From: Gammaproteobacteria bacterium
GTDB lineage: Bacteria > Pseudomonadota > Gammaproteobacteria > Steroidobacterales > Steroidobacteraceae
Direction: 5' to 3'
Length of the DNA: 64,000 nucleotides
Assembly: GCA_040007735.1 (NCBI GenBank)
Contig: JBDTUL010000001.1
Location: 3,933 to 67,932 of the forward strand
Both the position numbers and the translations under genes were made by a program. The notes beneath the pieces were generated by a model. That model saw nothing but the letters and a program-made list of their open reading frames with translations, was not told where the DNA came from and searched no databases. Below, piece by piece: positions 19,886 through 49,903 of this stretch; position 1 is the first letter of the stretch; each line of letters starts with the position of its first letter.

Positions 19886-20782
19886 TCATGCGGTTACTTC
19901 GTGCAACCACTCGACGACGGGTGTGACCTGAGAATCAGCCTTTACCAACACAAAATCGCATGCAAGCGCGTCGATGAGCCTGCTGGTAAGTGTGCCCATC
20001 AGCGGGCCGATCCCCTGCCGCCGCGTCAGCGCGCCGATGATCATGAGGTCGTAGTTCTGGCTGTCTGCGAATCCGGGCAGCACATCGTCGGCGGCGCCTG
20101 CGATTACATGCTGACTTTCCACTCCCACCTGGAACTTGCGGACCAGGCGCCCCAGCGTCTCCCAATGAGCCTCCACTGCCACTGAATCCTTGGCTTCCTG
20201 CTCGCAGTACAGAACATCGAGCTGCCCGTGACAGCCCAGCGTCAGGAAGCCGGCAGCCTCCATTACCGATCTTGCCAGCCCCGAGCCGGCTGCGTCGGCG
20301 ACATCCACCGCCGCGGCAAAGCGCCCCCGCGCGCTCCAGGGACGCCCGCGGGTCAACATCAGCGGGACGGGGCAGGCCTTTGCCAATTGCCAATCGTTGG
20401 CGTCGAGCGAAAATCGCTGCATCGGATGGTGGCCGGCAGCGCTCTTGACGACGAGATCCGGACACATCTCGTGAACCCTGTGAACGACAGACGCGCACAG
20501 GGGACCTTCGCTTGCCACGTGCGTTGTGATCGGCACGTCTTCGGCAAGCGAGCGCCCGACAGCGTCCACATAGCGCTGCAAGCGTGAGAGGCGGCCGCTC
20601 TGAGCCTCCTCGGGGCTCATTTTATCGTGAGCATGCCGCAGCGAGTGCCCATCCTCCGGATCGCATAAGAAAAGCTCCAGACGCGCTCGAAAATGACGGG
20701 CGAGCACCATGGCCTTCGCCACGACGTGCCGGCTTCCGTCAGCCGGGTCTATTACGACAAGAATGGAAGTCAGTTTGTCCAC
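19886..20782 (-). CDS. tandem universal stress protein (UspE-like), family 1
   Basis: 298 aa, MDKLTSILVVIDPADGS..., two USP domains (second ...LMIIGALTRRQGIGPLMGTLTSRLIDALACDFVLVK). About 60% identical by eye to 41467..42363. Confidence 0.85.
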   Translation of the reverse strand: MDKLTSILVVIDPADGSRHVVAKAMVLARHFRARLELFLCDPEDGHSLRHAHDKMSPEEAQSGRLSRLQRYVDAVGRSLAEDVPITTHVASEGPLCASVVHRVHEMCPDLVVKSAAGHHPMQRFSLDANDWQLAKACPVPLMLTRGRPWSARGRFAAAVDVADAAGSGLARSVMEAAGFLTLGCHGQLDVLYCEQEAKDSVAVEAHWETLGRLVRKFQVGVESQHVIAGAADDVLPGFADSQNYDLMIIGALTRRQGIGPLMGTLTSRLIDALACDFVLVKADSQVTPVVEWLHEVTA

Positions 20783-20828
20783 GCGCCGAGCCTGCCTGCG
20801 CGAAGCGTCACCTGGTATGCGCGCGCTT

Positions 20829-20855
20829 GCGTAGCGACCTGTGGAAACTCCCTAG
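20829..20855 (-). promoter_or_regulatory. island box, long form (gene-sense CTAGGGAGTTTCCACAGGTCGCTACGC)
   Basis: 47-73 nt upstream of the USP start at 20782, in the divergent fixL/USP intergenic region. 25 of 26 nt identical to the box at 42430..42456. Confidence 0.6.
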
Positions 20856-20888
20856 TTCGAGACGAGTGACCTGGGACATACTTCCACC

Positions 20889-22046
20889 ATGTCCGAACCC
20901 ACACTCCAGGCACTTCTGGAAGCTGCCGTCGATGCGGTCGTCCTCATCGATCATCGGGGTTCGATCACGGCTTTCAATCGTTCTGCCGAACGCCTGTTCG
21001 GCTACGGGTCCGAGGAACTGCTCGGCAGGAACGTGAGCATCCTGATGCCTGCGCCGCACCGGGCCGAGCACGATAGTTATCTCGAGCGCTATGCCCGAAC
21101 GGGCATCCCGCACATCATTGGCGTCGGCCGCGAGGTGGAAGGCCTGCGCAAGGACGGATCGTGCTTTCCCGCATTTCTTTCCGTCGGTCGCGTCGCGGGT
21201 GCCGAGCCGCCGCGATTTGTCGGGTTCGTGAGAGACATCACGACCGAGCGCCAGACACTCGCCAGCATCCAGGCCGAACGCGATCGGGCGGAAGCCCGGC
21301 AGAAGGAAGCGCAGCACGCGCGGGGACTGCAGGAGCGCATGACCCACGTGAGTCGCATGGCGACCATGGGCGAGATGGCCGCCGGCATTGCTCATGAGCT
21401 CAATCAGCCGCTGAGCGCTATAGCAACATACGCGCGAGCCTGCGAGCGTTTCCTCAAGATGGAGCAGCCCGACTTTCCGGAAACTCTCTCCGCGCTGAGC
21501 GAGATCAGCCTCGAAGCGATGCGCGCCGGCGAGATAATCCGGCGGCTGAGGCAACTCGTGAGCGCACGACCGAGCGATCACGTAACAACAGACCTCAATG
21601 CACTCGTTCGAGACCTCGAAGTGCTCATACAGGCTGATGCCAGAGTCCACAAGACTCAGATCGAGTTCGATCTCGCCGCCACACTACCGCCCGTACGCGG
21701 CGACCACACGCAGCTGCAACAACTGGCGCTGAGCCTCGTGCGCAACTCAATCGAATCGCTCACCGAATCTGAAACAAGTGGCCGGCTAGTGATCATCCGC
21801 ACGTCCCGCGTGCCGGACGGCCGGTTGGAGGTGAGCGTTTGCGACAACGGTCCAGGCGTCGCGCCGGACATGGTGGATCGGCTGTTCATCCCATTTGTCA
21901 CGACGAAGGTCAACGGCACAGGACTCGGTCTCTCAATTAGTCAGACCATCGCCCAGGCTCATGGCGGCACAATCGGATATCGACCGCACACGCCCGTCGG
22001 CGCGTGCTTCTGCGTGCGCCTGCCCCCTTTAGAGGAAGCAGAATGA
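20889..22046 (+). CDS. fixL: oxygen-sensing heme-PAS histidine kinase FixL (soluble form)
   Basis: PAS domain with the FixL heme-pocket signature (PAPHRAEHDSYLERYARTG...GREVEGLRKDGSCFPAFLSVG). H-box MGEMAAGIAHELNQPLSAI. HATPase boxes (NSIES, DNGPGV, GTGLGLSIS). No TM segment. Confidence 0.85.
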   Translation: MSEPTLQALLEAAVDAVVLIDHRGSITAFNRSAERLFGYGSEELLGRNVSILMPAPHRAEHDSYLERYARTGIPHIIGVGREVEGLRKDGSCFPAFLSVGRVAGAEPPRFVGFVRDITTERQTLASIQAERDRAEARQKEAQHARGLQERMTHVSRMATMGEMAAGIAHELNQPLSAIATYARACERFLKMEQPDFPETLSALSEISLEAMRAGEIIRRLRQLVSARPSDHVTTDLNALVRDLEVLIQADARVHKTQIEFDLAATLPPVRGDHTQLQQLALSLVRNSIESLTESETSGRLVIIRTSRVPDGRLEVSVCDNGPGVAPDMVDRLFIPFVTTKVNGTGLGLSISQTIAQAHGGTIGYRPHTPVGACFCVRLPPLEEAE

Positions 22047-23243: not shown

Positions 23244-23783
23244 CTACGCGGTCGGGTTTGAATCGACGCGCGGCAGAGGACGGCTGCGATTTATCGCCGC
23301 GACGAACACGGCTAGTTTTGTGTCGTATAAGGCCGCGTCTGCCAGATCGCGTGCATCGAATCCCACTGCCGCCAGAGCTATACGCCCGGATACGCGTTGC
23401 AGCTGGGGCACGAGTTTCATAACCTCAGTGCTACCGGAAGTGGTGAAGTACGCCACGTCCCCAAGTCGGGAACGGCAGCGGTTCAGAAAAGCGCGTACGC
23501 CCGGCGTCATGCGCCCGAACCACACCGGCGTGCCTATGATCGTCAGAGCGTAGTCCTGCGGATCGGTCGAAAGCGAGCCAATGCTCGCGGCCTTACCTCT
23601 CATCGCGTCGAAGGCACACTTGAGGTATCCCACAAAGCCAGTGCCGTGACCTTCGTCGCGGATGCTTTCGACATCCGCACCCATCAAGCGGGCGATGTCG
23701 CGTGCCACCCTGGCCGTGTTTCCGCTCATTGAGTAATAGACCACCAGCACTTTTCCTGCGTTGGCACCTGCGCCGCTTACCAT
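23244..23783 (-). CDS. flavodoxin-family protein
   Basis: KVLVVYYSMSGNTARVARDIA is a flavodoxin FMN-loop pattern. ATG 23783 has a GGAGA Shine-Dalgarno 6 nt upstream. The ORF-track start at 23801 is a TTG. Confidence 0.7.
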   Translation of the reverse strand: MVSGAGANAGKVLVVYYSMSGNTARVARDIARLMGADVESIRDEGHGTGFVGYLKCAFDAMRGKAASIGSLSTDPQDYALTIIGTPVWFGRMTPGVRAFLNRCRSRLGDVAYFTTSGSTEVMKLVPQLQRVSGRIALAAVGFDARDLADAALYDTKLAVFVAAINRSRPLPRVDSNPTA

Positions 23784-23863
23784 GAAGACTCTCCAAATCA
23801 AGTCCTTATCAGGGTATTCAGTCTAAGAGAGCCGGCCCACTCCGATCGTCAGTAGTACCGCCG

Positions 23864-23973: not shown

Positions 23974-26655
23974 TCACCCTTCCTGAGGGTGTATGTCGAG
24001 CCTGATGCGCACGACGCCTTCCTGCGCCATCTCCAAACGAAAGCCCTGTGTTTTCGCAAGTTGCAACATACGCGTGTTCGAGGCGAGTACATCCCCGATC
24101 ACCTGTCGAACTCCAAGTTGCCGGCAATAACGAACGATCTTCTCCATGAGCACGGCGCCAAGGCCATGGCCCTTCAGGTCTGAACGCACCAGCACGGCAA
24201 ACTCGGCACTCTCACTGTCTGGATCGGTCTGCGCGCGCACCACTCCAAGGGTCTCAGAGCGGCCGTCCGGTCCCGGCGCCGTGGCAATGAAGGCCATCGA
24301 GCGCTCGTAATCCAACTGAGTAAGATACGCGAGCTCGCCCGGTGGAAGCTTCTTCACCGCATGAAAGAAGCGCGCTTGCATGTCGTCTTCGGAAATGCGC
24401 GAAATGAATTCCTGATGCTGAGGCGCATCTTCGGGCCTCAAGGGACGCAGCAGTATCGTGCGATGGCCGAGAGTGAGTTGCTCTTCCAGCTCTTTGGGAT
24501 AGGGCCTGATGGCGAGCCGGTCGGCTGCCCTGCCTGTGGCTCGCGCGACCCGGATGCGTGCGTCCAGCGCCATGACGCCAGCGTCGTCGGCCAGCAGCGG
24601 GTTGATATCGAGTTCGACGATCTCAGCGATATCCACGGCAAGCCGGGAAACCTGCACGAGCGCTCGCTCCAGCGCTTGCATGTCGGCAGCCGGGTAATTG
24701 CGGAACCCCGCAAGCAACCGGCGCACACGCGTGCGGGAAATGAGCTCCGCCGCCAGCACCGTGTTGAGCGGCGGGAATCCGACTGCCTTGTCTGGAGCGA
24801 CTTCGACCTGCACGCCACCCTTGCCGAACAATATGATAGGGCCGAATGTTGCATCGACCGCGATTCCGACGATTAATTCGTGTGCGTGAGGCTTTCGTAC
24901 CATCGATTGTACGGTGAAGCCTTCGAGGCGCGCCTGCGGCCGCTGCACCCGGCATCGCTCCAACATCAGGTTTGCAGCCCGCGCCAATGCGTCGGCGTCG
25001 GCGATGTCGAGCACCACACCATCAACATCCGATTTGTGAGTGATATCCGGCGATAGAATCTTGAGTGCGACCGGATACCCCAGCGCCGCGGCTTCGACAA
25101 GCGCATCGTCCACATGTGATGCAATGCGCGTGGGGACGACGGGAATGAGATATGCGGCGAGAACCCGCTTCGCTTCGAGTTCGTTCAGAATGAATCGCCC
25201 CTCATCGAGCGCCGCGGAAATGATTGCTCTGACTTCCTCAGGGCGGGGCGCAAACGATTCCGGAACTGACGAGGGAACCTCCATCAGTTGCCGCTGATTG
25301 CGGTTGTAGCGGACCGCGTGGATGAACGCGCCGATAGCCTCTTCCGGCGTCGAGTATGTGGGAACGCCTGCGTCAGTGCAGAGCTTCCTCGCCTCGCGCA
25401 CGGCTTCGCCCCCCATCCAGCACGTAAGGACCGGGCGGCCGCTCGCAGCGATTTTTTCTGCGGAAAATCTCGCGATCGTCGTTGCCGGCACAATGGCGGT
25501 TGGCGCGTGTATCAAGAGCGCGGCATCCACGGCGGGATCGGCGAGCACGCATTGGAGCGCTTCGACATATCTCGTCGCCGGCGCATCCCCGATAATATCC
25601 ACGGGGTTTGCATGCGACCAATTCGGTGGCAATACCGCGTCGAGCCTCGCAATCGTCTGTGCCGATAGCGTTGCAAGCTCACCCTGCTCGGCGATGAGCT
25701 CATCGGTTGCCATGACCGCCGGCCCTCCTCCATTGCTCACGATCGCAAGGCGCTCACCGTGCAGCGGCTTCAGTCGGACGAGCGTCTCGGCCGCATCGAA
25801 GAGCTCTCGCGTGGTATCGACTCGCAACATGCCTGAGCGCCTGAACGCGGCGTCGTAGACATCATCCGCACCCGCCAGAGCGCCGGTGTGTGATGCGGCT
25901 GCCTTTGCGCCTTCTGCATACCGACCTGCCTTGACGACTATGACGGGCTTGTTCCGCGCCGTGGCGCGTGCGGCCGACATGAACTTTCGCGCGGCGCTGA
26001 TCGATTCGACGTAAAGCAGGATCGCCCGCGTATGCGAATCGCGAGCCAGGTAATCGAGCAGATCTCCAAAATCCACGTCCGCACAGTTACCGAGCGAGAT
26101 GAGGCACGAGAAGCCAATCTTCGCCGTACGCGCCCAGTCGAGCATCGCGGTCGCCAGCGCGCCGGATTGCGCAATGAAAGCAAGATTTCCCGACAGCGCC
26201 TGCGCGTGAGCGAAGCTTGCATTCAACCCAATGCGCGGCTGGAGAATCCCCAGGCAGTTTGGGCCGAGAATGCGCAACGTATGCGGCCGGGCTGCCTGAA
26301 GCATGGCTTGCGATAACGTGCCGCCGTCCGGGCCCGGAGCATCGAGACCCGCAGTAATCACGACGGCTGCGCGCGTGCCCAGCTCACCAAGCTCACCAAT
26401 CAGGCTCGGGACGGTAGATGCCGGCGTGCAAATGACTGCGAGATCCGGCACGCCGGGTAGATCACGGATGCTCTTGAATGCGAGGCGGTTCGCCACCTTC
26501 TGATGCCGCAGATTCACGGGCCATATCGGGCCGGCGAATCCACCTTCGAGAAGGTTGCGCATCACGGTGGCTCCCACGCTGCCGGGTCTGTCCGACGCGC
26601 CGATGAGCGCAACAGAGTGAGGCTCGAGCAGAAAATCGAGATTGCGACTGCTCAT
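23974..26655 (-). CDS. Pat/YfiQ-like protein acetyltransferase (NDP-forming acyl-CoA synthetase domains + C-terminal GNAT)
   Basis: 893 aa. CoA-binding N-terminus (SVALIGASDRPGSVG), succinyl-CoA-synthetase-like and ATP-grasp regions. C-terminal GNAT (ETLGVVRAQ...VLVRSDLKGHGLGAVLMEKIVRYCRQLG). Confidence 0.85.
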   Translation of the reverse strand: MSSRNLDFLLEPHSVALIGASDRPGSVGATVMRNLLEGGFAGPIWPVNLRHQKVANRLAFKSIRDLPGVPDLAVICTPASTVPSLIGELGELGTRAAVVITAGLDAPGPDGGTLSQAMLQAARPHTLRILGPNCLGILQPRIGLNASFAHAQALSGNLAFIAQSGALATAMLDWARTAKIGFSCLISLGNCADVDFGDLLDYLARDSHTRAILLYVESISAARKFMSAARATARNKPVIVVKAGRYAEGAKAAASHTGALAGADDVYDAAFRRSGMLRVDTTRELFDAAETLVRLKPLHGERLAIVSNGGGPAVMATDELIAEQGELATLSAQTIARLDAVLPPNWSHANPVDIIGDAPATRYVEALQCVLADPAVDAALLIHAPTAIVPATTIARFSAEKIAASGRPVLTCWMGGEAVREARKLCTDAGVPTYSTPEEAIGAFIHAVRYNRNQRQLMEVPSSVPESFAPRPEEVRAIISAALDEGRFILNELEAKRVLAAYLIPVVPTRIASHVDDALVEAAALGYPVALKILSPDITHKSDVDGVVLDIADADALARAANLMLERCRVQRPQARLEGFTVQSMVRKPHAHELIVGIAVDATFGPIILFGKGGVQVEVAPDKAVGFPPLNTVLAAELISRTRVRRLLAGFRNYPAADMQALERALVQVSRLAVDIAEIVELDINPLLADDAGVMALDARIRVARATGRAADRLAIRPYPKELEEQLTLGHRTILLRPLRPEDAPQHQEFISRISEDDMQARFFHAVKKLPPGELAYLTQLDYERSMAFIATAPGPDGRSETLGVVRAQTDPDSESAEFAVLVRSDLKGHGLGAVLMEKIVRYCRQLGVRQVIGDVLASNTRMLQLAKTQGFRLEMAQEGVVRIRLDIHPQEG

Positions 26656-28132: not shown

Positions 28133-28531
28133 TCAATTCAACCACGCGAGCACTCCAAGAGGGTTATGCGTGCGCGCGATTGACACTATCCAGCCGTAGA
28201 CCAGGCACGCTGCAATCGTGCAGATGAGGCGAGAGCGCCGTGTGGGAGCGCGCTTGAGTCCGAAGCTTGCCAGGACGATATAGAGAACGACGAGGGGCAC
28301 TTTCGCCGTGAGCCAGGAGTTCACGAACGGAAACTGGTGTAGCACCGTCATCAGCATGAGCGCCGCCGTCAGCAGCACTGTGTCGACCGTGTAACTGAGA
28401 TAGCGAATCGGCGCGGCCATCGCCCACAGTTGCCTTCCCTGCACCGCCAGGGCGCGTAACAAGAACAACCCGCCGCTCGACACGACGGCAATGACGTGGA
28501 CCAGCTTGATCTGCGGGTAGAACTCGATCAC
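28133..28531 (-). CDS. SirB2/YchQ-like 4-TM membrane protein
   Basis: 132 aa with four hydrophobic helices. Recalled resemblance to the SirB2 family. Moderate certainty only. Confidence 0.55.
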   Translation of the reverse strand: MIEFYPQIKLVHVIAVVSSGGLFLLRALAVQGRQLWAMAAPIRYLSYTVDTVLLTAALMLMTVLHQFPFVNSWLTAKVPLVVLYIVLASFGLKRAPTRRSRLICTIAACLVYGWIVSIARTHNPLGVLAWLN

Positions 28532-29543: not shown

Positions 29544-29701
29544 GTTCCTCACCTCGCCGTTGATTGCATAGTGCAGTAGCTGTGCACATCTGAACACTGA
29601 GATTTTTCGGCCTGCGCTACGCAGTTCTCCCGGTAGAAATGTCGACCCGCGTACGCGGTACGCACTTTTGGGCGTAACTTCGCGTTAGTTCCGCTAGAAG
29701 A

Positions 29702-29721
29702 CTAAGGACTCTTTCGTATGT
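29702..29721 (+). promoter_or_regulatory. island box, short form CTAAGGACTCTTTCGTATGT
   Basis: 59 nt upstream of ATG 29780. Preceded by GTTAGTTCCGC (29684..29694), which resembles the AGTT(T)CC core. Confidence 0.55.
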
Positions 29722-29779
29722 GCTGAATTGACCGGCGTGCAATCATTTTGTGCGCATCCTCACGAGCGAGAACACGGTC

Positions 29780-30520
29780 ATGAACACCAGAAAGCGCTGC
29801 GGAACCGAGCGGATTCGCCATGCGGGACCACTTGCGGCGTTAGCTCTGTGCGCCATCTTGCCTGTGCACGCCGCTGCAGACCGCGGCCTCAACGAGGGCG
29901 ATGAAGCGCGACGCGAGCTCATTGAGGCGGCCCGCCTGGTACCCAATACCCGACACGGCGCGGAGCTATTCGAGACCTGTGCCGCCTGCCATGGCCGCGA
30001 CGGATTGGGCGCTTCCGACGGAAGCGTCCCCGCCATCGCCGGGCAGCACGGCTCGGTTTTGCTGAAGCAGCTCGTAGATTTCCGTCATAACCGGCGCTGG
30101 GACGAGCGAATGCAGCATTTCAGCGATCGGCATCATCTCGCGAGTGCGCAGGAGCTCACTGATGTCACCGCCTACGTTTCCGGTCTGCGGCGTTTCGCGC
30201 CCCGAAGTAACGCGACTGGAACCGGCGAATACCTGCACCAGGGGACCAGCGTCTATTTCCGTGTGTGCGAAGCGTGTCACCGCCCATTGGGACAGGGAGA
30301 CTTACTGCATTTTCGGCCACGGCTGGCCGGCCAGCACTATCAGTATCTTCTCAAGCAGCTGAACGACATGGCATCGGGCAATCGGCAGGCAGTACATCCC
30401 GCACATGTCGAGCGGCTCCGCATATTGAGTCCAGAGGATCTCATGGGTGTCGCGGACTACCTTTCGCGCCTGAGCCCTGAGCTTTCCTCTGACAGCGTGA
30501 TACAGGCGAGTCGCCCATGA
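29780..30520 (+). CDS. diheme c-type cytochrome
   Basis: ORF 29750..30520 with the likely start at ATG 29780, giving signal peptide MNTRKRC...LCAILPVHAAA. Two CxxCH motifs (CAACH, CEACH). Confidence 0.8.
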   Translation: MNTRKRCGTERIRHAGPLAALALCAILPVHAAADRGLNEGDEARRELIEAARLVPNTRHGAELFETCAACHGRDGLGASDGSVPAIAGQHGSVLLKQLVDFRHNRRWDERMQHFSDRHHLASAQELTDVTAYVSGLRRFAPRSNATGTGEYLHQGTSVYFRVCEACHRPLGQGDLLHFRPRLAGQHYQYLLKQLNDMASGNRQAVHPAHVERLRILSPEDLMGVADYLSRLSPELSSDSVIQASRP

Positions 30521-31365
30521 CCTCGGCCGCCGACCGCGTTCGAGCCATTCTCGAGAGTCCATCCTATCGACTCGCAGAGGACGACACGGCATTCATGGAA
30601 AGTGCTGCGGCTCGCGCTTCGCGTCTGTCACTGGAATTCATGCGTGCGGATATGTATCTGCGCGAGCACAAGATCAATTCGACTGTCGTGGTGTTCGGCG
30701 GAACCAGAATCAGAGATCCCGAGATTGCGGAAGCCGCTCTCAGAGCCGTCGAAACAGGAAGCTTCCCAGATGGCACGCGACTCGCGACGGCGAAGCGGGA
30801 TCTGCGAATGAGCCGCTACTACACAGAAGCACGGCAGTTCTCGAACAGCCTGTCACACCGGGTGCGAAGGAATGACGGTCACCACCTGGTCGTGGTGACC
30901 GGGGGTGGCCCGGGCATCATGGAAGCCGCGAATCGCGGTGCATTCGAAGCTGGCGCGCCCAGCGTCGGGTTCAATATCCGGCTTCCGTCGGAACAGCCGC
31001 CCAATCCCTACATCTCTCCCCATCTCGCGCTCCGGTTTCACTACTTCGCGCTGCGCAAGATGCATTTCCTGCTTCGCGCCCGCGCGCTGGTCGCGTTCCC
31101 CGGCGGGTACGGGACGCTTGACGAACTATTTGAAGCGCTGAACCTGATCCAGACCCATGAGATGAGGCCGATTCCAATCGTGCTCGTTGGCGGAGAATTC
31201 TGGCGACGCGCGATCGATTTCGCCTACCTCGTCGATGAAGGCTGCATCGATGAGGCCGACCGGGGGCTGGTTCGCATCGTAGAGACTGGCGAAGCGGCCG
31301 CTGACGTGGTTCTCGCGCTGCATACGGCTCCATCTCCGACCGCAACCCAGGAAACAGTTTCATAG
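30517..31365 (+). CDS. LOG / TIGR00730-type (PpnN/YgdH-like) nucleotide nucleosidase family protein
   Basis: VVTGGGPGIMEAANRGA and PGGYGTLDELFE motifs. The ATG overlaps the cytochrome c stop (ATGA). Confidence 0.8.
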   Translation: MTSAADRVRAILESPSYRLAEDDTAFMESAAARASRLSLEFMRADMYLREHKINSTVVVFGGTRIRDPEIAEAALRAVETGSFPDGTRLATAKRDLRMSRYYTEARQFSNSLSHRVRRNDGHHLVVVTGGGPGIMEAANRGAFEAGAPSVGFNIRLPSEQPPNPYISPHLALRFHYFALRKMHFLLRARALVAFPGGYGTLDELFEALNLIQTHEMRPIPIVLVGGEFWRRAIDFAYLVDEGCIDEADRGLVRIVETGEAAADVVLALHTAPSPTATQETVS

Positions 31366-39065: not shown

Positions 39066-39521
39066 ATGAACGTCGGACACCTTCGCCAGCACCACGTTGT
39101 AACGTGTCAGCCGGCCGACAATCTGGTTACCGCCGCAAGGCTGATGCGGGAGAAGCATGTCGGCTTCCTGGTGGTAGTAGAAGTCGATGCGCAGGATGGA
39201 GACCTTACGCCCATCGGGGTCATTACCGACCGGGACATCGTCATCTCGGTCGTTGCCGAGGACGTAAGTCCGCACTCGCTGACTGTCGGTGACGTGATGA
39301 CCCGCAAACCTGTGGTCGCGTTGTCAGAGGACCCACTTAGCGACTCCGTTCAACAAATGCGGCTGAAGGGTGTCAGACGTCTCCCCGTCGTAGGCACGCG
39401 CGGGCATCTCGTGGGTGTGATCTCGCTGGACGACGTGCTGACGAGGATGGCAGCGGATTTCGGAGGTGCAGCCGGCGCAATCTCCAAAGGTCGCGCATTG
39501 GAAACCGAGATTCGTCCGTAG
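39066..39521 (+). CDS. CBS domain-containing protein
   Basis: 151 aa with two CBS repeats (VVTCQPADNLVTAARLMREKHVGFLVVV ... VQQMRLKGVRRLPVVGTRGHLVGVISLDDV). Confidence 0.8.
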   Translation: MNVGHLRQHHVVTCQPADNLVTAARLMREKHVGFLVVVEVDAQDGDLTPIGVITDRDIVISVVAEDVSPHSLTVGDVMTRKPVVALSEDPLSDSVQQMRLKGVRRLPVVGTRGHLVGVISLDDVLTRMAADFGGAAGAISKGRALETEIRP

Positions 39522-39542
39522 CGCAATGACGTTGGAGCGGTC

Positions 39543-39923
39543 ATGGAACATCGCTGGGGTCGTCGTATAGAGGCTGACGTTGCCGTTCGCTTGGTAGCGT
39601 CTCCGGGTGCAATCGGCTGGGGCCGGCTGAGGAATGTGAGTATCAGCGGTGCATTCGTGGAGACCCGCCTGAGATTGCCCATGCTGGCGGTCGTCGATGT
39701 TGAGCCCCAGCACGGCCCGTCTGCAAATCGAAAGATTCAAAGGCTGCGCGCATGTGTCGTGCGACATAGCAGCGCGGGTATGGGGCTCGAATGGGAAGAA
39801 CTGTCCGGGCGCGCCCTCGAGGCCGTTCTCGGTCATAGCGCCGCCTCAGCAGCCGCGCCGCCTCCGAAGGGACACGATGAACTCGATCAACCCGACCGCT
39901 ACGTAATCTCCCTGAGTCGTTAG
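39543..39923 (+). CDS. PilZ domain-containing protein
   Basis: N-terminal RxxxR (HRWGRRIE) and D/NxSxxG (NVSISGAF) motifs characteristic of c-di-GMP-binding PilZ domains. Confidence 0.65.
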   Translation: MEHRWGRRIEADVAVRLVASPGAIGWGRLRNVSISGAFVETRLRLPMLAVVDVEPQHGPSANRKIQRLRACVVRHSSAGMGLEWEELSGRALEAVLGHSAASAAAPPPKGHDELDQPDRYVISLSR

Positions 39924-39936
39924 GCATCGCTACGAA
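39912..39936 (+). promoter_or_regulatory. degenerate island box (CTGAGTCGTTAGGCATCGCTACGAA)
   Basis: 77 nt upstream of USP ATG 40013, overlapping the PilZ stop. Shares the CTGAGT and TCGCTACG cores, but the spacing is 3 nt shorter. Confidence 0.3.
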
Positions 39937-40012
39937 TCGCGCTCGCCGACTACGTGACGCGAAGATGTAGCGCTCCGCTCAGATCCGGACAACGCCAACT
40001 GGAGAGCCGATT

Positions 40013-40999
40013 ATGCGAACCGTGCGCCGAATACTGGTGGCCGTGAAGGAACCTATGGCAAAACGCCTCCCGGCGGTCGAAAAGGCGACGCAGCTCGCTC
40101 GGTCGCTAGGTGCGGACGTCGAGCTGTTCCACTCGATCTCCGGGCCCATCTTTTTGGGCGCCGACAGTTTCGACGGTGGCAGCCTCGCAGAAGTCCAGAA
40201 CGCGCGTCGCGTCCAGGTCAAAAGCCGTCTCGAAGCGATTGCCAGCAAGATTCGCAAGCAGGGGATCAGTGTTAGCACATGCGCGGACTGGGACTTCCCC
40301 GCCGGCGAGGCGATTGTCCGGCGCGCGGCTCGCACTCGGTCCGATCTGATCGTGGCGGACTGTCACGCGGGCAAGCATCACGGTTCCTGGCTCCTGAGGC
40401 TGACCGACTGGGAGCTTCTGAGACATAGCTCTGTGCCGGTGCTGCTCGTGAAGAGCGCTCGCCCGTATCGGAATCCGGTCGTGCTCGCCGCGGTGGACCC
40501 GGGGCACGCGTTCGCTAAGCCCGCAAAGCTCGACGATGAGATTCTGAGTGCCGCCGCATTAGTGAAGAGGACGCTGCGAGGAACCCTACACGCCGTACAC
40601 GCCTATGTACCAGTGCCAAACGATGCGAAGCCTTCCGAGTTGCTCGATCCCGACGCGACCAGGACTCTGGATGCCCGCGCTCGCACGCACGCCCGCCAAC
40701 GGCTTCAGCCGCTGCTCAAGAAGGTTACGGTGCCGCCTGGCCAACGGCACCTCGTAGGCCAGCATCCTATCAACGCGATCCCCGATCTGGCGCGCGAAAT
40801 CGGCTGCGCCATATTGGTTATGGGTGCAATTTCACGTTCCGGACTAAAGCGCCTTTTTATCGGCAACACGGCGGAACGGATACTCGATGAGGTAGGGTGT
40901 GACGTGCTTGTGGTGAAGGCGCCGGGCTTTGCAAGTCGAATTCCCTATGCCGAACGCGGGACACGAGTGGTTATGTCGCCAATGCCGCGTCGGCCCTGA
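40013..40999 (+). CDS. tandem universal stress protein, family 2
   Basis: 328 aa. MRTVRRILVAVKE...ELFHSI...WDFPAGEAIVRRA...LTDWELLRHSSVPVLLVK...LVMGAISRSGLKRLFIGNTAERIL...DVLVVKAP. Confidence 0.85.
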   Translation: MRTVRRILVAVKEPMAKRLPAVEKATQLARSLGADVELFHSISGPIFLGADSFDGGSLAEVQNARRVQVKSRLEAIASKIRKQGISVSTCADWDFPAGEAIVRRAARTRSDLIVADCHAGKHHGSWLLRLTDWELLRHSSVPVLLVKSARPYRNPVVLAAVDPGHAFAKPAKLDDEILSAAALVKRTLRGTLHAVHAYVPVPNDAKPSELLDPDATRTLDARARTHARQRLQPLLKKVTVPPGQRHLVGQHPINAIPDLAREIGCAILVMGAISRSGLKRLFIGNTAERILDEVGCDVLVVKAPGFASRIPYAERGTRVVMSPMPRRP

Positions 41000-44275: not shown

Positions 44276-44302
44276 CTAAGTACTTCCACGGCTCGACTAC
44301 GG
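44276..44302 (+). promoter_or_regulatory. island box, long form CTAAGTACTTCCACGGCTCGACTACGG
   Basis: 84 nt upstream of BON gene ATG 44386. A weaker CAAGGAGAATGTCAGGTTACGCGG copy lies at 44242..44265. Confidence 0.5.
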
Positions 44303-44385
44303 AGCCCTCCGAATCGCATCTGCCCGTCATCAATTCGAAAATGCGACGTCGTGAAAATCGCGAACTGCATCCGAGGAGAGCGGGC

Positions 44386-45045
44386 ATGAGAACCGACGCC
44401 GAGATCCGCGAGGACGTCACCGAAGAGCTTCGCTGGACACCGTATGTCGACGAAACCGATATCGCCGTCAAGGTGACCGAGGGTGTCGTGACCCTTACCG
44501 GTTTCGTGAAGTCCTTCGACGAGCGATGCAACGCCGAGCGCGCAGTCAAGCGCATCAGCGGTGTGCGTGCATTGGCCAACGATCTGGAGACCCGCTTACG
44601 GCACGGAGACAGCCAGACTGATCCGGAACTCGCGCGAGCCGCTGCAACAGCGCTCGACCACGAGCTTCCCTATTCAGCACACCTCATAAGGATCGTGGTG
44701 GAGAACGGCCACGCGACGCTCGAAGGCGTTGTGGACTGGCAGTATCAGAAGGAACGTGCCGATCAGGCCATACGCACGCTGCGCGGTCTCACGGGTGTGA
44801 CAAATCTGGTGAGCGTGAGCGGCGGTGACCGGCCTGTGGCGTCAGACATCAAACTGAAGATCGCCGGAGCGCTGAAGCGCAGTGCCGAAATCGATGCCGG
44901 GCGAATCAACGTTCAGATCGACGGACAACAGGTCACGCTGACGGGTAGGGTTCAATCCTGGTCGGAGCACGAAGCCGCTGCGGACGTAGCGTGGTCCGCA
45001 CCCGGCGTGACCGAGGTCAGGAATCACATCTGCGTCGGACCATGA
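44386..45045 (+). CDS. BON domain-containing (OsmY-like) protein, three BON repeats
   Basis: ORF trimmed to ATG 44386 (MRTDAEIREDVTEELRW...). Repeats end in GVVTLTG, GHATLEG and QQVTLTG, each followed by an A...A...V.GV..V.N pattern. Confidence 0.8.
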   Translation: MRTDAEIREDVTEELRWTPYVDETDIAVKVTEGVVTLTGFVKSFDERCNAERAVKRISGVRALANDLETRLRHGDSQTDPELARAAATALDHELPYSAHLIRIVVENGHATLEGVVDWQYQKERADQAIRTLRGLTGVTNLVSVSGGDRPVASDIKLKIAGALKRSAEIDAGRINVQIDGQQVTLTGRVQSWSEHEAAADVAWSAPGVTEVRNHICVGP

Positions 45046-46856
45046 AACCCTCGTCCGAATCGGAGCTGTCCCACTTCATCTGGGAGCAGCGCTATCGTGA
45101 TCCGGATGCACAGCCTCACGAGAAGGACCTCGGCGACACGTGGAAGCGCGTGGCGCGCGCGGCCTCGGCGGTCGAACAGAATCCGCCGCTCTGGACCGAA
45201 AGATTTCTCAGCCTGTTTCGGGATTTCCGGTTCATCCCCGGGGGCCGCATTCTCGCGGGCGCGGGTGCGGCCCGAAACCTGACGCTCGCCAACTGCTTCG
45301 TGATGGGCGCTATCGAGGATTCGGTCGCGGGAATATTCGAAGCCCTCAAGGAAGGCGCGCTGACCATCCAGCAGGGAGGCGGAGTGGGCTACGACTTTTC
45401 GACGCTCCGCCCGCGCGGGTCAGCTGCGCAGAGCAGTGGCACAGTCGCGTCCGGCCCTATCTCGTTCATGCGCGTCTGGGATGCGATGTGCGCAGCCGTC
45501 CAGTCCACCACAGCGCGCCGCGGCGCCATGATGGCGACGCTGCGCTGTGATCACCCCGACATCGAAGCATTCATCGATGCCAAGCGCTCGCCCGATGAGC
45601 TGCGCTACTTCAACCTCTCCGTTCAAGTGACCGAGCAGTTCATGCAAGCCGTCCTGAACGATGGCGACTGGCCGCTCGTCTTTCCCGATCCGGACGGCAG
45701 CGCCGAATGCGTCTGGAGCGGCAGTCTCGAGGCGGTCCGCTGCCGCGTCCATCGTGTCGTCCGCGCCCGCGAGATATGGAAGCGCCTCTGCAATAGTGCC
45801 TACGATTGCGCAGAACCGGGCGTGCTGTTCATCGATCGCATCAACGGCGAGAACAATCTCGCCTACTGCGAGCAGCTGACCGCGACAAACCCGTGCGCAG
45901 AAGCACCGCTGCCTGCGTACGGAGCTTGCCCGCTCGGATCTATCAATCTCGCTGCCTTCGTGCTCGACGCCTTTACTGCCAGGGCGCGCCTCGATGAAGC
46001 TGGCATCCGCACGAGCGCCCGTGAAGCAGTGAGATTCCTGGATGACATCATTGAGATTTGTCATTTCCCCCTGATGCGCCACAGAGAGCAGGTAAATCGA
46101 TCCAGACGCCTGGGGCTCGGAGTGACCGGCCTCGCCGATGCGCTCGCAATGCTCGGGCTGCACTACGACAGTGAACCCGCGCGCGCGACTGCCGCCCTGG
46201 CCATGCGCACTCTTCGAGATTCGGCCTACGAGGCTTCCGTCGACCTCGGGCGCGAGCGCGGTTCATTCCCCGCCTTCGATGCGGACGCCTACCTTTCACG
46301 CCCGTTCATCCGGGCGCTCCCGGCGCATATCCAGAATTCCATCGCACGTTACGGCATTCGCAACAGCCATCTCATCGCGATCGCGCCGGCAGGCTCGATA
46401 AGCCTGCTCGCAAATAATGTGAGCAGCGGCATCGAGCCTATGTCTGGCATCGAAACGTTCCGACGCGTGCTCGCCACCGATGCGACCTATCGGAACTTCC
46501 AGGTGACCGATCTTGCGTACGCGGCTTGGCGCCTGCTACGAACCCCGCAAGCCGACAAACCGGCCTCCTTCGTCGAGGCCGAAGCAATCGCCCCGCGCGA
46601 TCACCTGCTGATGCAGGCAGCAGTGGCACCATTTGTCGACGGCTCGATCTCGAAGGTGATCTCTCTACCGCAAGGTGCCGACCGAACGGCCGTTGCGGAG
46701 CTCTTCGAAGCCGCGCATCTGCTTGGCCTGAAGGGGTGCACGATATTCTCCGCTGGCTCGCGTGCGGCGGCGATTGCGCGCAGAGGCGAGGCGGATCATG
46801 AGCGGGAGGCACTAGCGGCCGAATACTGCAGCACTGCGGGTCGAGCCAGCGACTGA
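45042..46856 (+). CDS. nrdJ: adenosylcobalamin-dependent (class II) ribonucleotide reductase
   Basis: ORF trimmed to ATG 45042, which overlaps the BON stop (ATGA). RNR signatures LANCFV, GGGVGYDFSTLRPRG, SGPISFM, TNPCAE, ISKVISL. Confidence 0.85.
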   Translation: MKPSSESELSHFIWEQRYRDPDAQPHEKDLGDTWKRVARAASAVEQNPPLWTERFLSLFRDFRFIPGGRILAGAGAARNLTLANCFVMGAIEDSVAGIFEALKEGALTIQQGGGVGYDFSTLRPRGSAAQSSGTVASGPISFMRVWDAMCAAVQSTTARRGAMMATLRCDHPDIEAFIDAKRSPDELRYFNLSVQVTEQFMQAVLNDGDWPLVFPDPDGSAECVWSGSLEAVRCRVHRVVRAREIWKRLCNSAYDCAEPGVLFIDRINGENNLAYCEQLTATNPCAEAPLPAYGACPLGSINLAAFVLDAFTARARLDEAGIRTSAREAVRFLDDIIEICHFPLMRHREQVNRSRRLGLGVTGLADALAMLGLHYDSEPARATAALAMRTLRDSAYEASVDLGRERGSFPAFDADAYLSRPFIRALPAHIQNSIARYGIRNSHLIAIAPAGSISLLANNVSSGIEPMSGIETFRRVLATDATYRNFQVTDLAYAAWRLLRTPQADKPASFVEAEAIAPRDHLLMQAAVAPFVDGSISKVISLPQGADRTAVAELFEAAHLLGLKGCTIFSAGSRAAAIARRGEADHEREALAAEYCSTAGRASD

Positions 46857-46980: not shown

Positions 46981-47430
46981 ATGAGCCTGGTACGTTGGGA
47001 ACCGTTCTCTGGGGTGGATGAAATATTCAATCGGCTGATGCCGGCCGCGTTCGGACGTTGGCCGCGCGTGAACCTGCCGGCAAACGGTGAGACGAAGTTC
47101 GAGTGGGCGCCGTCAGCCGACATCAGTGAGACTGAGAAAGAATTTCTGGTGCGCGCCGAACTGCCGGCGGTCAAGAAAGAAGACGTGAAGGTGACCGTTG
47201 ATCGGGGAATGCTCACGATCGAGGGTGAGCGCAAGCAGGAAAGGGAAGACAAGACCGAGAAATATCACCGCGTCGAAAGTTACCGCGGCAGCTTCTCCCG
47301 CAGCTTCTCACTTCCGGAGAACATCGATGCCGATGCGATCCGATGCGAGAGCAAGGACGGCGTGCTGGTCGTGCACATTCCCAAGACCCAGCCCGCGGCG
47401 GCGAAATCGAAGCAGATCAAAGTCGAATGA
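46981..47430 (+). CDS. Hsp20/alpha-crystallin family small heat-shock protein
   Basis: 149 aa. WEPF...APSADISETEKEFLVRAELPAVKKEDVKVTVDRGMLTIEGERK...ESYRGSFSRSFSLPENID...GVLVVHIPK. GGAAGGAG Shine-Dalgarno 7 nt upstream. Confidence 0.9.
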   Translation: MSLVRWEPFSGVDEIFNRLMPAAFGRWPRVNLPANGETKFEWAPSADISETEKEFLVRAELPAVKKEDVKVTVDRGMLTIEGERKQEREDKTEKYHRVESYRGSFSRSFSLPENIDADAIRCESKDGVLVVHIPKTQPAAAKSKQIKVE

Positions 47431-47700: not shown

Positions 47701-48987
47701 TTACTGCCCTGCCACGGCCAGCGTAATCACCAAAGCGATCCAGCCGGCGATGATGCAACCGAGAGCGACGGCCGCGATCTCGACTGCAAACCGTCCGCGG
47801 CCGATCACCGCACTCAGTGCCACCTTGCTGAGTGTGTTACTCGCCACTCCAGCGAGGATCGCGAAGGAAGCTGCTCGCGATGCCAGCTCCGACTCCAGGC
47901 GCACCATAGAGACTGTCATCGCATCTACGTCAAATAGGCCCATGGTAGCCGCCCCTGCTATGGCCCCTGTCGCGCCGAATCGCTCGTTGATGACGCGGCC
48001 GACCACAATCAGTGCGCCCATTGACGCTGCGATACCGATCACAGGCCAGAACCCGAATGGATTGCGAAATGGCACCGGCGACTGGGGATCGCCCCGCGCT
48101 GAGAGCAGCGATACCAGTGCAAACCCCGCGGCAACCAAAGCGCCAACGAGCAGCGAAGGACCAACCCACATGAGCAAGGACGGCTTGAGCGCACCGACAA
48201 TCGCGGCGACTCGGACAAACGAAACAGCGGTGGCCAGTGCCGTGCCCGCCGCCAGAGTGCGTGCCGACCCTTCGCCGGCAGCCGCTCTTCTTGCGTTGGC
48301 CAGCGCGACAGCGGTCGACGATACCAACCCTCCGGCGGCGGCGGCTACGAGAGCCCCACGGCGCTCGCCCAGGTGTTTCACGGCGATATAGCCCGCGAAT
48401 GATATCGACGCAATCGCAACGGCGATCACCCAGACTTCGCGCAGATTTACTCCGCCGAAAGGGCCGACCGAACGATCGGGCACGATCGGAAGCGCGATGA
48501 ATGTCATGGCGAGCAGGACGAGCGCGGATTCGAACTCGACACGGGTGATGCTCGCCACCCAGCCGTGAAGACCTTCGCGAAACACAAGAACAGCCACGGC
48601 AGTCACCGCCGAGGCAGCGGCAACTCGGACGTCTCCAACCAGAGCATATGCACCCAGAATGAACGTCAGCAGCGCGGCGATCGCAGTGGTCGCCGAAGAC
48701 GTTCCGGAGGCTCTGTTCTCGTCGCGACTGAACATGGTGATCACCACGGCGAAAGCGAGAAACGCGAGACCCAGCAGAATGCTGCCGCTGATGCCCAGAG
48801 TGCCATTGGCGCCCTGGGCAAGCGCTCCCACCAGCCCTCCCAGGAGTCCCGATATAGCAAAGGTGCGCAATCCGGCTGCGCGACTACCGGGCAGCGCCTC
48901 ACGCGTTCTCCATCCGCGTTCGAGTCCGATCAGTAGCCCGATGCCGAAAGCAAGCGCGACGCGCGACAGTAACCCCTCGAGATCCAC
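47701..48987 (-). CDS. MgtC/SapB-family plus DUF4010 membrane protein
   Basis: 428 aa. N-terminus LAFGIGLLIGLERGWRTRE...AGLRTFAISGLLGG is the MgtC-type motif. Polytopic throughout. Confidence 0.8.
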   Translation of the reverse strand: MDLEGLLSRVALAFGIGLLIGLERGWRTREALPGSRAAGLRTFAISGLLGGLVGALAQGANGTLGISGSILLGLAFLAFAVVITMFSRDENRASGTSSATTAIAALLTFILGAYALVGDVRVAAASAVTAVAVLVFREGLHGWVASITRVEFESALVLLAMTFIALPIVPDRSVGPFGGVNLREVWVIAVAIASISFAGYIAVKHLGERRGALVAAAAGGLVSSTAVALANARRAAAGEGSARTLAAGTALATAVSFVRVAAIVGALKPSLLMWVGPSLLVGALVAAGFALVSLLSARGDPQSPVPFRNPFGFWPVIGIAASMGALIVVGRVINERFGATGAIAGAATMGLFDVDAMTVSMVRLESELASRAASFAILAGVASNTLSKVALSAVIGRGRFAVEIAAVALGCIIAGWIALVITLAVAGQ

Positions 48988-49150
48988 ACAGCACCCCTCG
49001 CGTTAGTGGGTGCCAATAGAACCCGCGATGCGCACGCCGGACATACGTACTTCGCCGGGTTTTCTGCCCGCCCGCTCCGCAATGCTCCGTATGGGCGACT
49101 GCTTAAGCCGCGCGCAGCATCAACTCCGAACTGACCTGGTAGGGTACGCC

Positions 49151-49666
49151 ATGAAAAGCAGCATCGCAGTGAGAACCATGCTTTCCTATACGTTGGTCTT
49201 GGTCGCCTGCGCACCGGCCCTCCTCTGGGCGCAGCAGAAACCTGCCATGTCAGAGACCAAACCGTACACGGTGGTCAACGGGAAGGTAGACGATGCGACG
49301 TTTCGTGGTTGGCGCGCTTATCACTCCTCGTGCCACACCTGCCACGGGGTCGACGGCACCGGCACGAGTGTCGCACCGAATCTGGTCGAGCGCGTCAAAG
49401 CTCTGTCCGCTCGGGACTTCACTACCAAGGTACTGACGAGCTATCGCATCGTCATTGATTCTGGTGAAGCGCATGCAGACGACTCAACAGCGGTACGCCA
49501 GGCATTCATCGACGAGGTCTTGAGACGCGAACGGGGCGACCTCGTAATGCCCGCATGGGAGCACGACTCGAAAGTGCAGCCACATGTCCTCGATTTATAT
49601 GCGTATCTGCGAGCGCGTGCCGATGGATCCCTCGGCCCGGGGCAGCCCGCGCGGAGCGCGCAATAG
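49151..49666 (+). CDS. monoheme c-type cytochrome
   Basis: ORF 49010..49666 trimmed to ATG 49151, giving signal peptide MKSSIAVRTMLSYTLVLVACAPALLWA. CHTCHG heme motif. Confidence 0.75.
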   Translation: MKSSIAVRTMLSYTLVLVACAPALLWAQQKPAMSETKPYTVVNGKVDDATFRGWRAYHSSCHTCHGVDGTGTSVAPNLVERVKALSARDFTTKVLTSYRIVIDSGEAHADDSTAVRQAFIDEVLRRERGDLVMPAWEHDSKVQPHVLDLYAYLRARADGSLGPGQPARSAQ

Positions 49667-49675
49667 CTCTAGACA

Positions 49676-49903
49676 ATGGAGGAATCTCTGATGAGCGCGA
49701 CCACCGCGTACAGCTCGAAACGCGGCGACACCATGCTTGCCCGGCGCCGCACATTCATCACGCCCGAACAGCGGCGGAGCATGGTCGCCGAAGCCGTGTA
49801 CTACTTTTCTGAGCACCGCGGCTTTGCCGCCGGCTATGAGTTGAATGACTGGCTCGCCGGCGAAGACCAGATCGCTGCCACATTTTCGATGCGCGACGCA
49901 TAG
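49676..49903 (+). CDS. DUF2934 domain-containing small protein
   Basis: 75 aa. The IT..QRR.MVAEAAYY..E.RGF..G.E..DW..AE pattern recalled for DUF2934 matches ITPEQRRSMVAEAVYYFSEHRGFAAGYELNDWLAGE. Confidence 0.6.
   Translation: MEESLMSATTAYSSKRGDTMLARRRTFITPEQRRSMVAEAVYYFSEHRGFAAGYELNDWLAGEDQIAATFSMRDA

Follow-up and report, generated by a model that had tools for sequence, protein, structure and literature searches.

The 64-kb stretch of contig JBDTUL010000001.1 analysed here (hereafter the window; G+C 62%) contains a fixL-fixJ pair amid numerous genes for universal stress proteins (USPs) and next to a cbb3 oxidase cluster. An initial annotation, made from the letters and their open reading frames (ORFs), had described positions 19886-49903 as a FixLJ-headed hypoxia or dormancy island that resembles the DosR and low-oxygen-activated (lxa) loci and may have arrived horizontally. 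Genes were called with a self-trained codon model and then corrected by Pfam, NCBIfam, tblastn and motif searches; calling by G+C content at third codon positions (GC3) only had been dropped, as it did not discriminate real genes. The codon model overlooked three minus-strand genes (the DksA-like gene, the sixth USP gene and the cytochrome c gene at 43608-43931), calling their shadows instead, and these were recovered by motif and tblastn searches. The closest relatives of several window genes are found in Steroidobacteraceae and other gammaproteobacterial metagenome-assembled genomes (MAGs) from soil. Five related metagenomic loci (L018-L020, L022 and L023) were obtained via FixL homologues of 62-85% identity, none of which was used for motif building, and further loci (e.g. 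L001, L004, L006, L011 and L012) were retrieved through the APH/P-loop kinase gene. The sensor, the regulator and the USP genes of the window are as follows:

19886-20782, minus strand: intact tandem USP gene (298 aa; Pfam), divergent from fixL
20889-22046, plus strand: fixL, short soluble predicted haem-PAS histidine kinase of 385 aa with one PAS, a HisKA and a HATPase_c domain (Pfam, NCBIfam)
22043-22669, plus strand: fixJ, response regulator with REC and GerE domains (Pfam), overlapping fixL by 4 bp
22716-23125, minus strand: decayed, frameshifted USP gene
26969-27148, plus strand: decayed USP fragment (tblastn/Pfam)
27145-28128, plus strand: intact tandem USP gene
31379-32365, plus strand: intact tandem USP gene within a probable cytochrome c/LOG-like/USP/REC operon
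32398-32844, plus strand: REC-only FixJ paralogue of 148 aa, with no helix-turn-helix domain and no fixL upstream
35338-36327, plus strand: intact tandem USP gene
40013-40999, plus strand: intact tandem USP gene
41470-42363, minus strand: intact tandem USP gene, recovered by tblastn

The claim of a haem-PAS FixL with its FixJ is supported in silico, and the pair is predicted to be a genuine haem-PAS system. The PAS domain of FixL can be aligned to the B. japonicum FixL haem domain (1dp6; E 6e-37) without a gap, and the alignment retains the proximal His (within ...EHDSYLERY...) as well as two Arg residues, those of YLERY and IIGVGREV (pocket/FG loop). FixJ matches B. japonicum FixJ (5xso) with an E-value of 4e-46. 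The number of USP genes given by the initial annotation, six intact and two decayed, was exactly reproduced (Pfam, tblastn), and the window USPs are of the UspE/PA1789 type (PDB 3mt0; E 4e-29). The pairing of the 298-aa USP with the divergent fixL is seen again in L018, L019, L020 and L023. Two different modules of this kind, with FixL 85% and 73% identical to that of the window, lie on two large contigs of one assembly (GCA_037975565.1; L018 and L019), which represents either paralogous FixLJ systems or a mixed bin.

Most transcription units around fixLJ share a promoter box, an imperfect palindrome of ~20 bp with the core TACGnA-N4-TnCGTA that lies ~50-90 bp 5' of their start codons. The spacing of the TAC...GTA arms equals that of NarL 7-2-7 sites, which fits a GerE-type dimer. 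The dyad TACGCA-N4-TGCGTA was first noticed by k-mer counting and inspection. Allowing up to three mismatches, it occurs 13 times in intergenic DNA as compared with 2.8 +/- 1.6 expected (300 shuffles, maximum 7), and 12 of the 13 matches fall between 18.0 and 44.3 kb; over the whole window the same search shows no enrichment, the excess being intergenic only. Unsupervised expectation maximization on 28 upstream regions converged on this ~20-bp palindrome too (cgCTACGcAgtncTgCGtAgcG). Of 37 gene starts inside the cluster, 22 reach the 95th percentile of control scores (0 of 13 control promoters outside), and these 22 starts correspond to 18 distinct sites, several of them common to divergent genes. 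The following boxes, scored in part with a position weight matrix (PWM), bear most directly on the argument:

16712..16749: predicted FixJ-type boxes 5' of the ccoN operon, CTACGTAGAACTCC...TATGCAGTCGTGCGAG, PWM 13.5, outside the training set
18055..18070: predicted FixJ-type box TACGCAGAAACCCGTA, 50 bp 5' of LigA
20816..20855: two adjacent predicted FixJ-type boxes in the divergent USP-fixL promoter, TGCGCGCGCTTGCGTA, then CTGTGGAAACTCCCTA, PWM 13.9
23162-23177: predicted box of the decayed USP gene at 22716-23125
26877-26892 and 27067-27082: predicted boxes ahead of the USP fragment at 26969 and the intact USP gene at 27145
29113-29128: perfect palindromic predicted box, TACGCATTCCTGCGTA, 0 mismatches, PWM 18.9
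32978-32993: orphan predicted box 3' of the REC-only paralogue, with 13 nt in common with box 23162
35258-35273: predicted box ahead of the USP gene at 35338, PWM 19.1

The boxes resemble known FixJ targets. On the window matrix, the FixJ site of S. meliloti that was defined by experiment, TAAGTAATTTCCCTTA (Kurashima-Ito 2005, as cited in PMC4999443), scores 11.5 bits and thereby ranks in the top 6e-5 of random 16-mers; it is identical to the box of the USP gene at 40013 in 13 of 16 positions. The classes GTAGTTTCCC and GTAMGTAG, obtained by systematic evolution of ligands by exponential enrichment (SELEX), are also recognisable in the window boxes.

The box likewise recurs in the five independent loci, so that the shared promoter box proposed by the initial annotation was borne out by intergenic counts, by de novo motif finding and by related DNA, and its type could be specified as that of FixJ. 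In L018-L020, 11 of 18 matrix matches fall into the windows from -30 to -130, which make up 9% of the bases (p = 7e-8), and in L022-L023 this holds for 6 of 7 matches (p = 5e-6). The boxes of the related loci precede genes for USP, CBS, cytochrome c, PilZ, Pat, SulP, LigA, HPF and fixL; LigA of L023, like that of the window, is among them. Further boxes are located 5' of nrdJ in L004 and L006, and the Hsp20 box, which is weak in the window, is stronger at the homologues in L011 and L017. A weak box was also found 5' of hemN, and the ccoN promoter block is conserved in the L018 alignment. An alignment of four genomes (A2) displays a footprint between USP and fixL that is made up of two neighbouring boxes and, just 5' of the ATG, a conserved CATACTT. 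In the same alignment CTGGGAcATACTT is conserved in all four genomes (window 20856-20888) and ends ~10 nt 5' of the fixL ATG, so that it may be a -10 element, with the fixL mRNA being nearly leaderless.

A side observation concerns L022 (FixL 62% identical), where an HPF/RaiA ribosome hibernation factor is encoded at 12023-12440 with a FixJ-type box 76 bp upstream. The fixLJ neighbourhood of this locus also contains a quinol-dependent nitric oxide reductase (qNOR; NorB), HemN, SirB and BON.

The geometry of the palindrome itself is common across the NarL/FixJ superfamily, the related loci hold additional hybrids of PAS, histidine kinase and REC domains, and the nearest PDB match of the window regulator is StyR. 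The boxes might hence be real but serve another GerE/NarL-family regulator, e.g. the partner of a hybrid PAS kinase, with FixLJ merely located in the same place. We consider this unlikely, as FixJ is the only intact DNA-binding regulator within 7-50 kb, both the S. meliloti FixJ site and the SELEX classes agree with the boxes, and the best-conserved tandem boxes are those at the fixL promoter, which is typical of autoregulation.

The REC-only paralogue shares 84% amino acid identity with FixJ over 135 codons, with a proportion of synonymous differences (pS) of 0.77 and a nonsynonymous to synonymous ratio (pN/pS) of 0.12, values that mark the copy as ancient and constrained. A recent duplication was ruled out, as synonymous sites are saturated. 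The copy was not found in the related loci L018-L020. Together with the orphan box at 32978 it may be either the remnant of an old duplication of a fixJ-USP-box unit or a FixT-like phosphate sink or inhibitor.

The gene ccoN is a textbook target of FixK and FNR, and signs of such a second tier were searched for. Exact TTGA-N6-TCAA sites number zero in the window and six related loci (~185 kb), the region upstream of ccoN included. An FNR/Anr/FixK box as the shared motif was rejected: TTGAT-N4-ATCAA with up to two mismatches occurs 9 times as compared with 12.8 expected, and exact sites are again zero. No CRP/FNR gene was detected in the window or the six related loci. These results bear on the possibility of a two-tier cascade, in which FixLJ acts through a FixK-type CRP/FNR protein encoded elsewhere, or another stress regulator drives the cluster, and the palindromes are not operative. 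Such a cascade is the rule in rhizobia and Caulobacter and is the proposed model in Burkholderia, the direct FixJ regulon being tiny there (PMC4999443, PMC12071387, PMC6127331), and the window covers only 64 kb of the genome. Yet neither a FixK-type box, even 5' of ccoN, nor a CRP-family gene occurs in the neighbourhoods examined, whereas the promoters do have conserved boxes of FixJ type, so that we regard a two-tier control of this cluster as improbable, even slightly more so than the use of the boxes by another regulator. A literature search in a limited collection for FixJ chromatin immunoprecipitation sequencing or a large direct FixJ regulon returned nothing relevant.

As judged from the boxes, the co-regulated block comprises ~43 kb with about forty genes, roughly from 7.1 to 49.9 kb, and does not start at 19886, because the adjacent cbb3, LigAB and hemN genes have the same box. 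Of the boundaries first proposed, the right one was retained, while the left one was moved to ~7.1 kb so as to include YkuD, LigAB, ccoNOQP-fixGHIS and hemN. Left of hemN, a sulfide:quinone-oxidoreductase-like flavoprotein and an OsmC-like protein (4798-7001) have no convincing box and mark the left limit of the regulon. The remaining genes of the block and its right-hand neighbours, the latter including remnants of an integrative and conjugative element (ICE), are as follows:

7139..16643, minus strand: hemN, ccoS, ccoI/fixI, fixH, ccoG/fixG, ccoP, ccoQ, ccoO and ccoN (cbb3 cluster) and a 57-aa ORF (Pfam)
16767..18004, minus strand: LigB/LigA-like extradiol dioxygenase pair (Pfam), at the equivalent position in L019 and L023
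18076..19812, minus strand: YcbB/YkuD-type L,D-transpeptidase (NCBIfam), probably in one operon with the upstream USP gene
23244..23801, minus strand: flavodoxin-like protein (Pfam), predicted box 23871-23886
23974..26655, minus strand: Pat/YfiQ-type protein acetyltransferase with CoA-binding, ATP-grasp and GNAT domains (Pfam, NCBIfam)
28133..28531, minus strand: SirB-family membrane protein (Pfam), also beside fixLJ in L022
28584-28985, minus strand: protein with eRF1/Pelota/Balon-like fold, 133 aa, single domain (AlphaFold model)
29184-29543, minus strand: DksA/TraR-type C4 zinc-finger protein (motif search, NCBIfam), predicted box 29618-29633
29750-30520, plus strand: dihaem cytochrome c, first gene of the probable operon 29659..32844 (plus strand), which continues with LOG-like, tandem USP and REC-only FixJ paralogue genes and has predicted boxes 29659 and 29703 ahead
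33051..35236, minus strand: operon of a 200-aa membrane protein that matches no family, together with the gene for an APH-like + AAA_33 P-loop kinase of 528 aa (Pfam)
36437..38227, minus strand: beta-CASP metallo-hydrolase and DUF883-like protein (Pfam, NCBIfam), predicted box 36834-36849
38534-38938, plus strand: pseudogene remnant with the C-terminal part of a P-type ATPase (Pfam)
38956..40999, plus strand: CBS-pair protein, PilZ-like protein, then tandem USP, predicted boxes 38956, 38987, 39900 and 39921
41000-41470, minus strand: cytochrome c, paired with the tandem USP at 41470-42363, predicted box 42419-42434
42317-43603, minus strand: N-terminal fragment of a P-type ATPase (Pfam)
43608-43931, minus strand: monohaem cytochrome c (recovered by tblastn/motif search)
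44298..46856, plus strand: protein with three BON domains and class II (adenosylcobalamin, AdoCbl) ribonucleotide reductase NrdJ, predicted box 44298-44313
46981..47430, plus strand: Hsp20/alpha-crystallin (Pfam)
47701..49903: MgtC/DUF4010 (minus strand), cytochrome c 49010/49148-49666 (plus strand) and DUF2934 (plus strand), with the common predicted box 49076-49091
50024-51292, plus strand: TraI_2 relaxase truncated to 422 aa, ICE remnant (Pfam)
51211-52134, minus strand: integrase N-terminus without catalytic domain, ICE remnant (Pfam)

The protein families named by the initial annotation were recovered almost throughout. Hsp20, class II NrdJ, BON, the Pat-like acetyltransferase, flavodoxin and DksA/TraR were found with Pfam and NCBIfam, and so were the LOG-like protein, the APH-like kinase with its P-loop, the beta-CASP, CBS and MgtC/DUF4010 proteins and the small c-type cytochromes, of which four genes are located in 19886-49903. 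The PilZ and DUF883 matches were seen but narrowly miss the Pfam cut-offs (21.3 and 25.6 bits, respectively). The cbb3 cluster is documented by matches to COX1, FixO, FixP_N, FixG_C, HMA-ATPase and Radical_SAM+HemN_C, and it adjoins fixLJ in L018 and L023 as well. YkuD adjoins USP-fixLJ in L018, L020 and L023, the Pat gene adjoins a USP gene in L020, L023 and L001, and the BON-NrdJ pair is also present in L023. NrdJ passes the NCBIfam model NrdJ_Z (520 bits, cut-off 400) with a probable start at 45042, and the CBS-pair protein matches Hrp1 (PDB 1xkf; E 2.5e-8). The pair of kinase and membrane protein is kept in L004, L006, L011 and L012 and is found across many gammaproteobacterial MAGs; a PDB sequence search with the kinase returned no matches.

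The eRF1-like protein of the initial annotation was recovered by predicted fold and not by family: Pfam and NCBIfam assign no family to 28584-28985, nor to 34634-35236. The best PDB folds for its AlphaFold model (pLDDT 80) are aRF1, eRF1, Pelota and Balon/Rv2629 (E 5e-5 to 1e-3; TMq 0.5-0.6; target-normalised TM-scores 0.20-0.26), a fold resemblance without the three-domain aeRF1 architecture of ~360 aa. As it consists of one domain only, the modelled protein would resemble a Balon domain rather than a Balon. Its family, which has more than 2,500 metagenome members and is named 'translational machinery protein' (PGAP) or 'Dom34' (JGI), displays an invariant His/Asp-rich motif, WIDHxxAR...HHKA.

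Synteny of the block extends to relatives whose FixL is 62-85% identical. A Steroidobacteraceae MAG (L023; FixL 65% identical) carries fixIHG-ccoPQON-LigBA-YkuD-cytochrome c-USP-fixLJ-USP-BON-NrdJ-Pat-CBS-USP-USP, with the first of these USP genes divergent from fixLJ, and the relative with 85% FixL identity (L018) has a cluster of ~25-30 kb in which cco is followed by fixLJ, Pat, USPs and BON and finally by the gene for the eRF1 fold. The loci found via the APH/P-loop kinase contain the same genes in shuffled order. Co-conservation of the block in related genomes, on which the initial annotation had made its proposal depend, was therefore found as synteny in these relatives, and the comparison indicates that the gene set is co-conserved but fluid.

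The ICE scar itself was also recovered, in the form of the truncated TraI_2 relaxase and the integrase N-terminus at 50.0-52.1 kb. Within 50024-53475 these remnants are followed by ~1.3 kb of apparently non-coding DNA and then a P450 gene. They abut the right end of the block, and the locus contains rearrangements and pseudogenes, so that the cluster might be a horizontally acquired island and cargo of the ICE, as had been suggested. The composition speaks against such an origin, with GC3 being 0.70 in the block and 0.73-0.76 in the flanks and codon-usage distances being alike. Neither type IV secretion system genes, att repeats nor a tRNA target were identified in the window, and a tRNA scan of it found none. 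The left junction cco-LigAB-YkuD-USP-fixLJ is syntenic in relatives (FixL 65-85% identical) and the order continues there with USP-BON-NrdJ-Pat-CBS, in loci without ICE genes. Since codon composition equals that of the flanks and synteny extends to relatives, horizontal acquisition is not supported; we hold it to be very unlikely, and the most plausible view of the ICE remnant is that it adjoins the block without having delivered it.

Taken together, we consider it likely that the block represents a chromosomal one-tier regulon, running from FixL to FixJ, for microaerobic respiration and hypoxic persistence in a Steroidobacteraceae-like soil gammaproteobacterium. As expected from its family, FixL would lose O2 and then phosphorylate FixJ. 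Phosphorylated FixJ would bind the ~20-bp palindromes (core TACGnA-N4-TnCGTA) 50-90 bp 5' of start codons and directly activate 20-25 transcription units, its own operon included, from ~18 intergenic regions with boxes. The position of the boxes is compatible with the footprints from -69 to -31 reported for S. meliloti fixK (PMC4999443). One arm of the regulon would support microaerobic respiration by means of the cbb3 oxidase and its maturation genes, hemN, the small cytochromes c and flavodoxin. The other arm would serve growth arrest and persistence and might include the six tandem USPs, Hsp20, BON, the AdoCbl-dependent NrdJ, the Pat-type acetyltransferase and the DksA-like protein, and likewise the eRF1-fold protein, the LOG-like protein, the beta-CASP nuclease, the APH/P-loop kinase, CBS and MgtC. 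Given that no FixK/FNR tier is visible, FixJ would take the role that FixK has in rhizobia and Burkholderia and DosR in mycobacteria. More tentatively, and with somewhat less than even confidence, we posit that FixJ has become a one-tier master activator of the DosR type that directly drives at least 18 promoter regions, those of the cbb3 oxidase and of the growth-arrest kit alike, without FixK in between. The block would then be a convergent counterpart, among proteobacteria, of the mycobacterial dormancy regulon, and its REC-only paralogue may be FixT-like.

Several points weigh against the one-tier regulon. FixJ belongs to the FixJ/StyR subfamily and its closest solved relative is StyR, not FixJ, so that its DNA specificity is deduced from the pairing with FixL and from the similarity of the boxes. 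As the matrix was trained on sites of the window, the box counts within the window are circular in part, and the decisive tests are therefore those on the related loci and on the S. meliloti site. The perfect box at 29113 is located 127 bp from the nearest start codon (gene 28584-28985), box 32978 is an orphan, and no convincing box was found for Pat, Hsp20, beta-CASP (score 7.8), SirB and the cytochrome c gene at 43931. The locus is eroding, with two USP pseudogenes, a split ATPase and a truncated fixJ copy, and its parts need not all function. A FixK-type regulator could be encoded outside the 64-kb window, and the proposal as a whole is derived in silico from sequence.

At the family level the block resembles the DosR and lxa loci as had been claimed, with the kit of USPs, small heat-shock protein, class II ribonucleotide reductase, BON and CBS being present. 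The lxa cluster of B. cenocepacia (BCAM0275a-BCAM0323; Sass et al. 2013, PMC3721108), compared here at the level of families (its Table 4), comprises ~50 kb with six USPs, an alpha-crystallin small heat-shock protein, BON ('phospholipid-binding') proteins, a LOG-type 'lysine decarboxylase', cytochrome c, a class II ribonucleotide reductase, a metal-dependent (beta-CASP-type) RNase, a cation P-type ATPase and two-component systems, and in both clusters a palindromic motif is common to many promoters. The lxa motif, however, is of FNR/Anr type (TGA-N6-TCA) and Anr-like CRP regulators are encoded in the locus, whereas the window has neither. Burkholderia fixLJ is unlinked (BCAL2210/2211) and, by the accepted hypothesis, reaches the lxa motif of FNR type by way of FixK (BCAM0049; PMC6127331, PMC12071387), while here fixLJ lies inside the block and the boxes are of FixJ type. 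Genes for polyhydroxyalkanoate, acetate kinase, alcohol dehydrogenase, nitroreductase and ribokinase are present in lxa and absent here; in turn the window has Pat, the DksA-like protein, the eRF1 fold, APH/P-loop, CBS, MgtC and the cbb3 oxidase.

Functionally nearest would be the DosS/DosT-DosR system of M. tuberculosis, which likewise combines a haem-based kinase with a regulator of the NarL/FixJ superfamily, direct ~20-bp palindromes at dozens of promoters and autoregulation, and whose regulon includes tandem USPs, an alpha-crystallin, a class II ribonucleotide reductase, the CBS-pair protein Hrp1 and a P-type ATPase. The Dos sensors are haem-GAF proteins and the window sensor is a predicted haem-PAS protein, the window USPs are of UspE/PA1789 type, and the sequence of the window box is unrelated to the DosR box consensus. 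The window kinase is likened to the DosR regulon phosphotransferase Rv2004c (PMC8701281) by family description only, and Balon/Rv2629, the eRF1-fold ribosome hibernation factor among the outputs of that regulon (PMC10901736), has three domains as compared with the single one of 133 aa here. We regard the resemblance as a family-level analogy and convergence, not as orthology.

With the rhizobial FixLJ-FixK cascade (S. meliloti, B. diazoefficiens) the window shares a haem-PAS FixL, FixJ and a FixJ site close to TAAGTAATTTCCCTTA. The FixK2 regulon of B. diazoefficiens contains fixNOQP/fixGHIS, hemN, USPs, Hsp20, CBS, GNAT and 'host attachment' (eRF1-like) proteins (PMC6515984). In rhizobia the promoters bound by FixJ are very few (fixK, nifA) and the regulon is run by FixK through TTGA-N6-TCAA boxes; the rhizobial targets are dispersed, whereas here they are clustered and FixJ-type boxes are located on ~18 intergenic regions including that of ccoN. 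The Anr-dependent USPs of P. aeruginosa (e.g. PA1789) are tandem UspE-type homologues of the window USPs and have been linked to anoxic survival (cited in PMC3721108), but they are controlled by an FNR-type Fe-S sensor and are not clustered.

The novelty seen by the initial annotation in the combination of such genes with an O2 sensor, a shared promoter box and factors that act on translation, transcription and nucleotide pools needs to be narrowed, as FixLJ acting through FixK already controls genes for USPs, Hsp20, CBS, GNAT and 'host attachment' proteins in Bradyrhizobium (PMC6515984) and has been proposed to control lxa in Burkholderia (PMC12071387, PMC6127331). What is new according to our analysis is the architecture, with the sensor inside the cluster, direct predicted FixJ boxes on ~20 promoters and no FNR tier seen. 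If this holds true, much the same hypoxia-survival kit would be under FNR-type factors in Burkholderia, Pseudomonas and rhizobia, under DosR in mycobacteria and directly under FixJ here, and a large direct regulon would revise the view of FixJ as having only a handful of targets. The DNA specificity of FixJ has been described as lacking a common consensus (PMC4999443), and the ~20 natural predicted operators of graded quality could define it; they would also be useful in synthetic biology, where FixL/FixJ are in use. Uncultured soil bacteria face fluctuating oxygen, and as candidate effectors of their dormancy the block offers the eRF1-fold mini-protein, the DksA-like protein and the APH/P-loop kinase together with the membrane protein of its operon. 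Under a one-tier regulon, the eRF1-fold protein, the DksA-like protein, Pat beside the USPs and the kinase would be candidates for the shutdown of translation and transcription, in an abundant family of soil Gammaproteobacteria.

Some features of the block are noted in addition. An Rfam scan of the window gave no family and neither a riboswitch nor a small RNA. The two P-type ATPase fragments lie ~3.4 kb apart on opposite strands, with CBS, PilZ-like, USP, cytochrome c and USP genes between them, which points to an inversion or insertion together with a deletion. A reassembly of the two with the L011 homologue was rejected, only the N-terminal piece matching, and the fragments may therefore derive from different genes. 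The LigAB pair is kept together with a FixJ-type box between the cbb3 genes and fixLJ (window 16767-18070; L019 7764-8965; L023 5687-6904), with the stop codon of LigB directly adjoining the start of ccoN in L023; the low-oxygen regulon would here include an O2-consuming ring-cleavage enzyme. Directly 5' of ccoN and overlapping it, a small Cys-rich ORF (16470-16643, minus strand; 57 aa, MCCPLCEEPV...) belongs to no Pfam family, and its 5' part is strongly conserved at the nucleotide level in L018.

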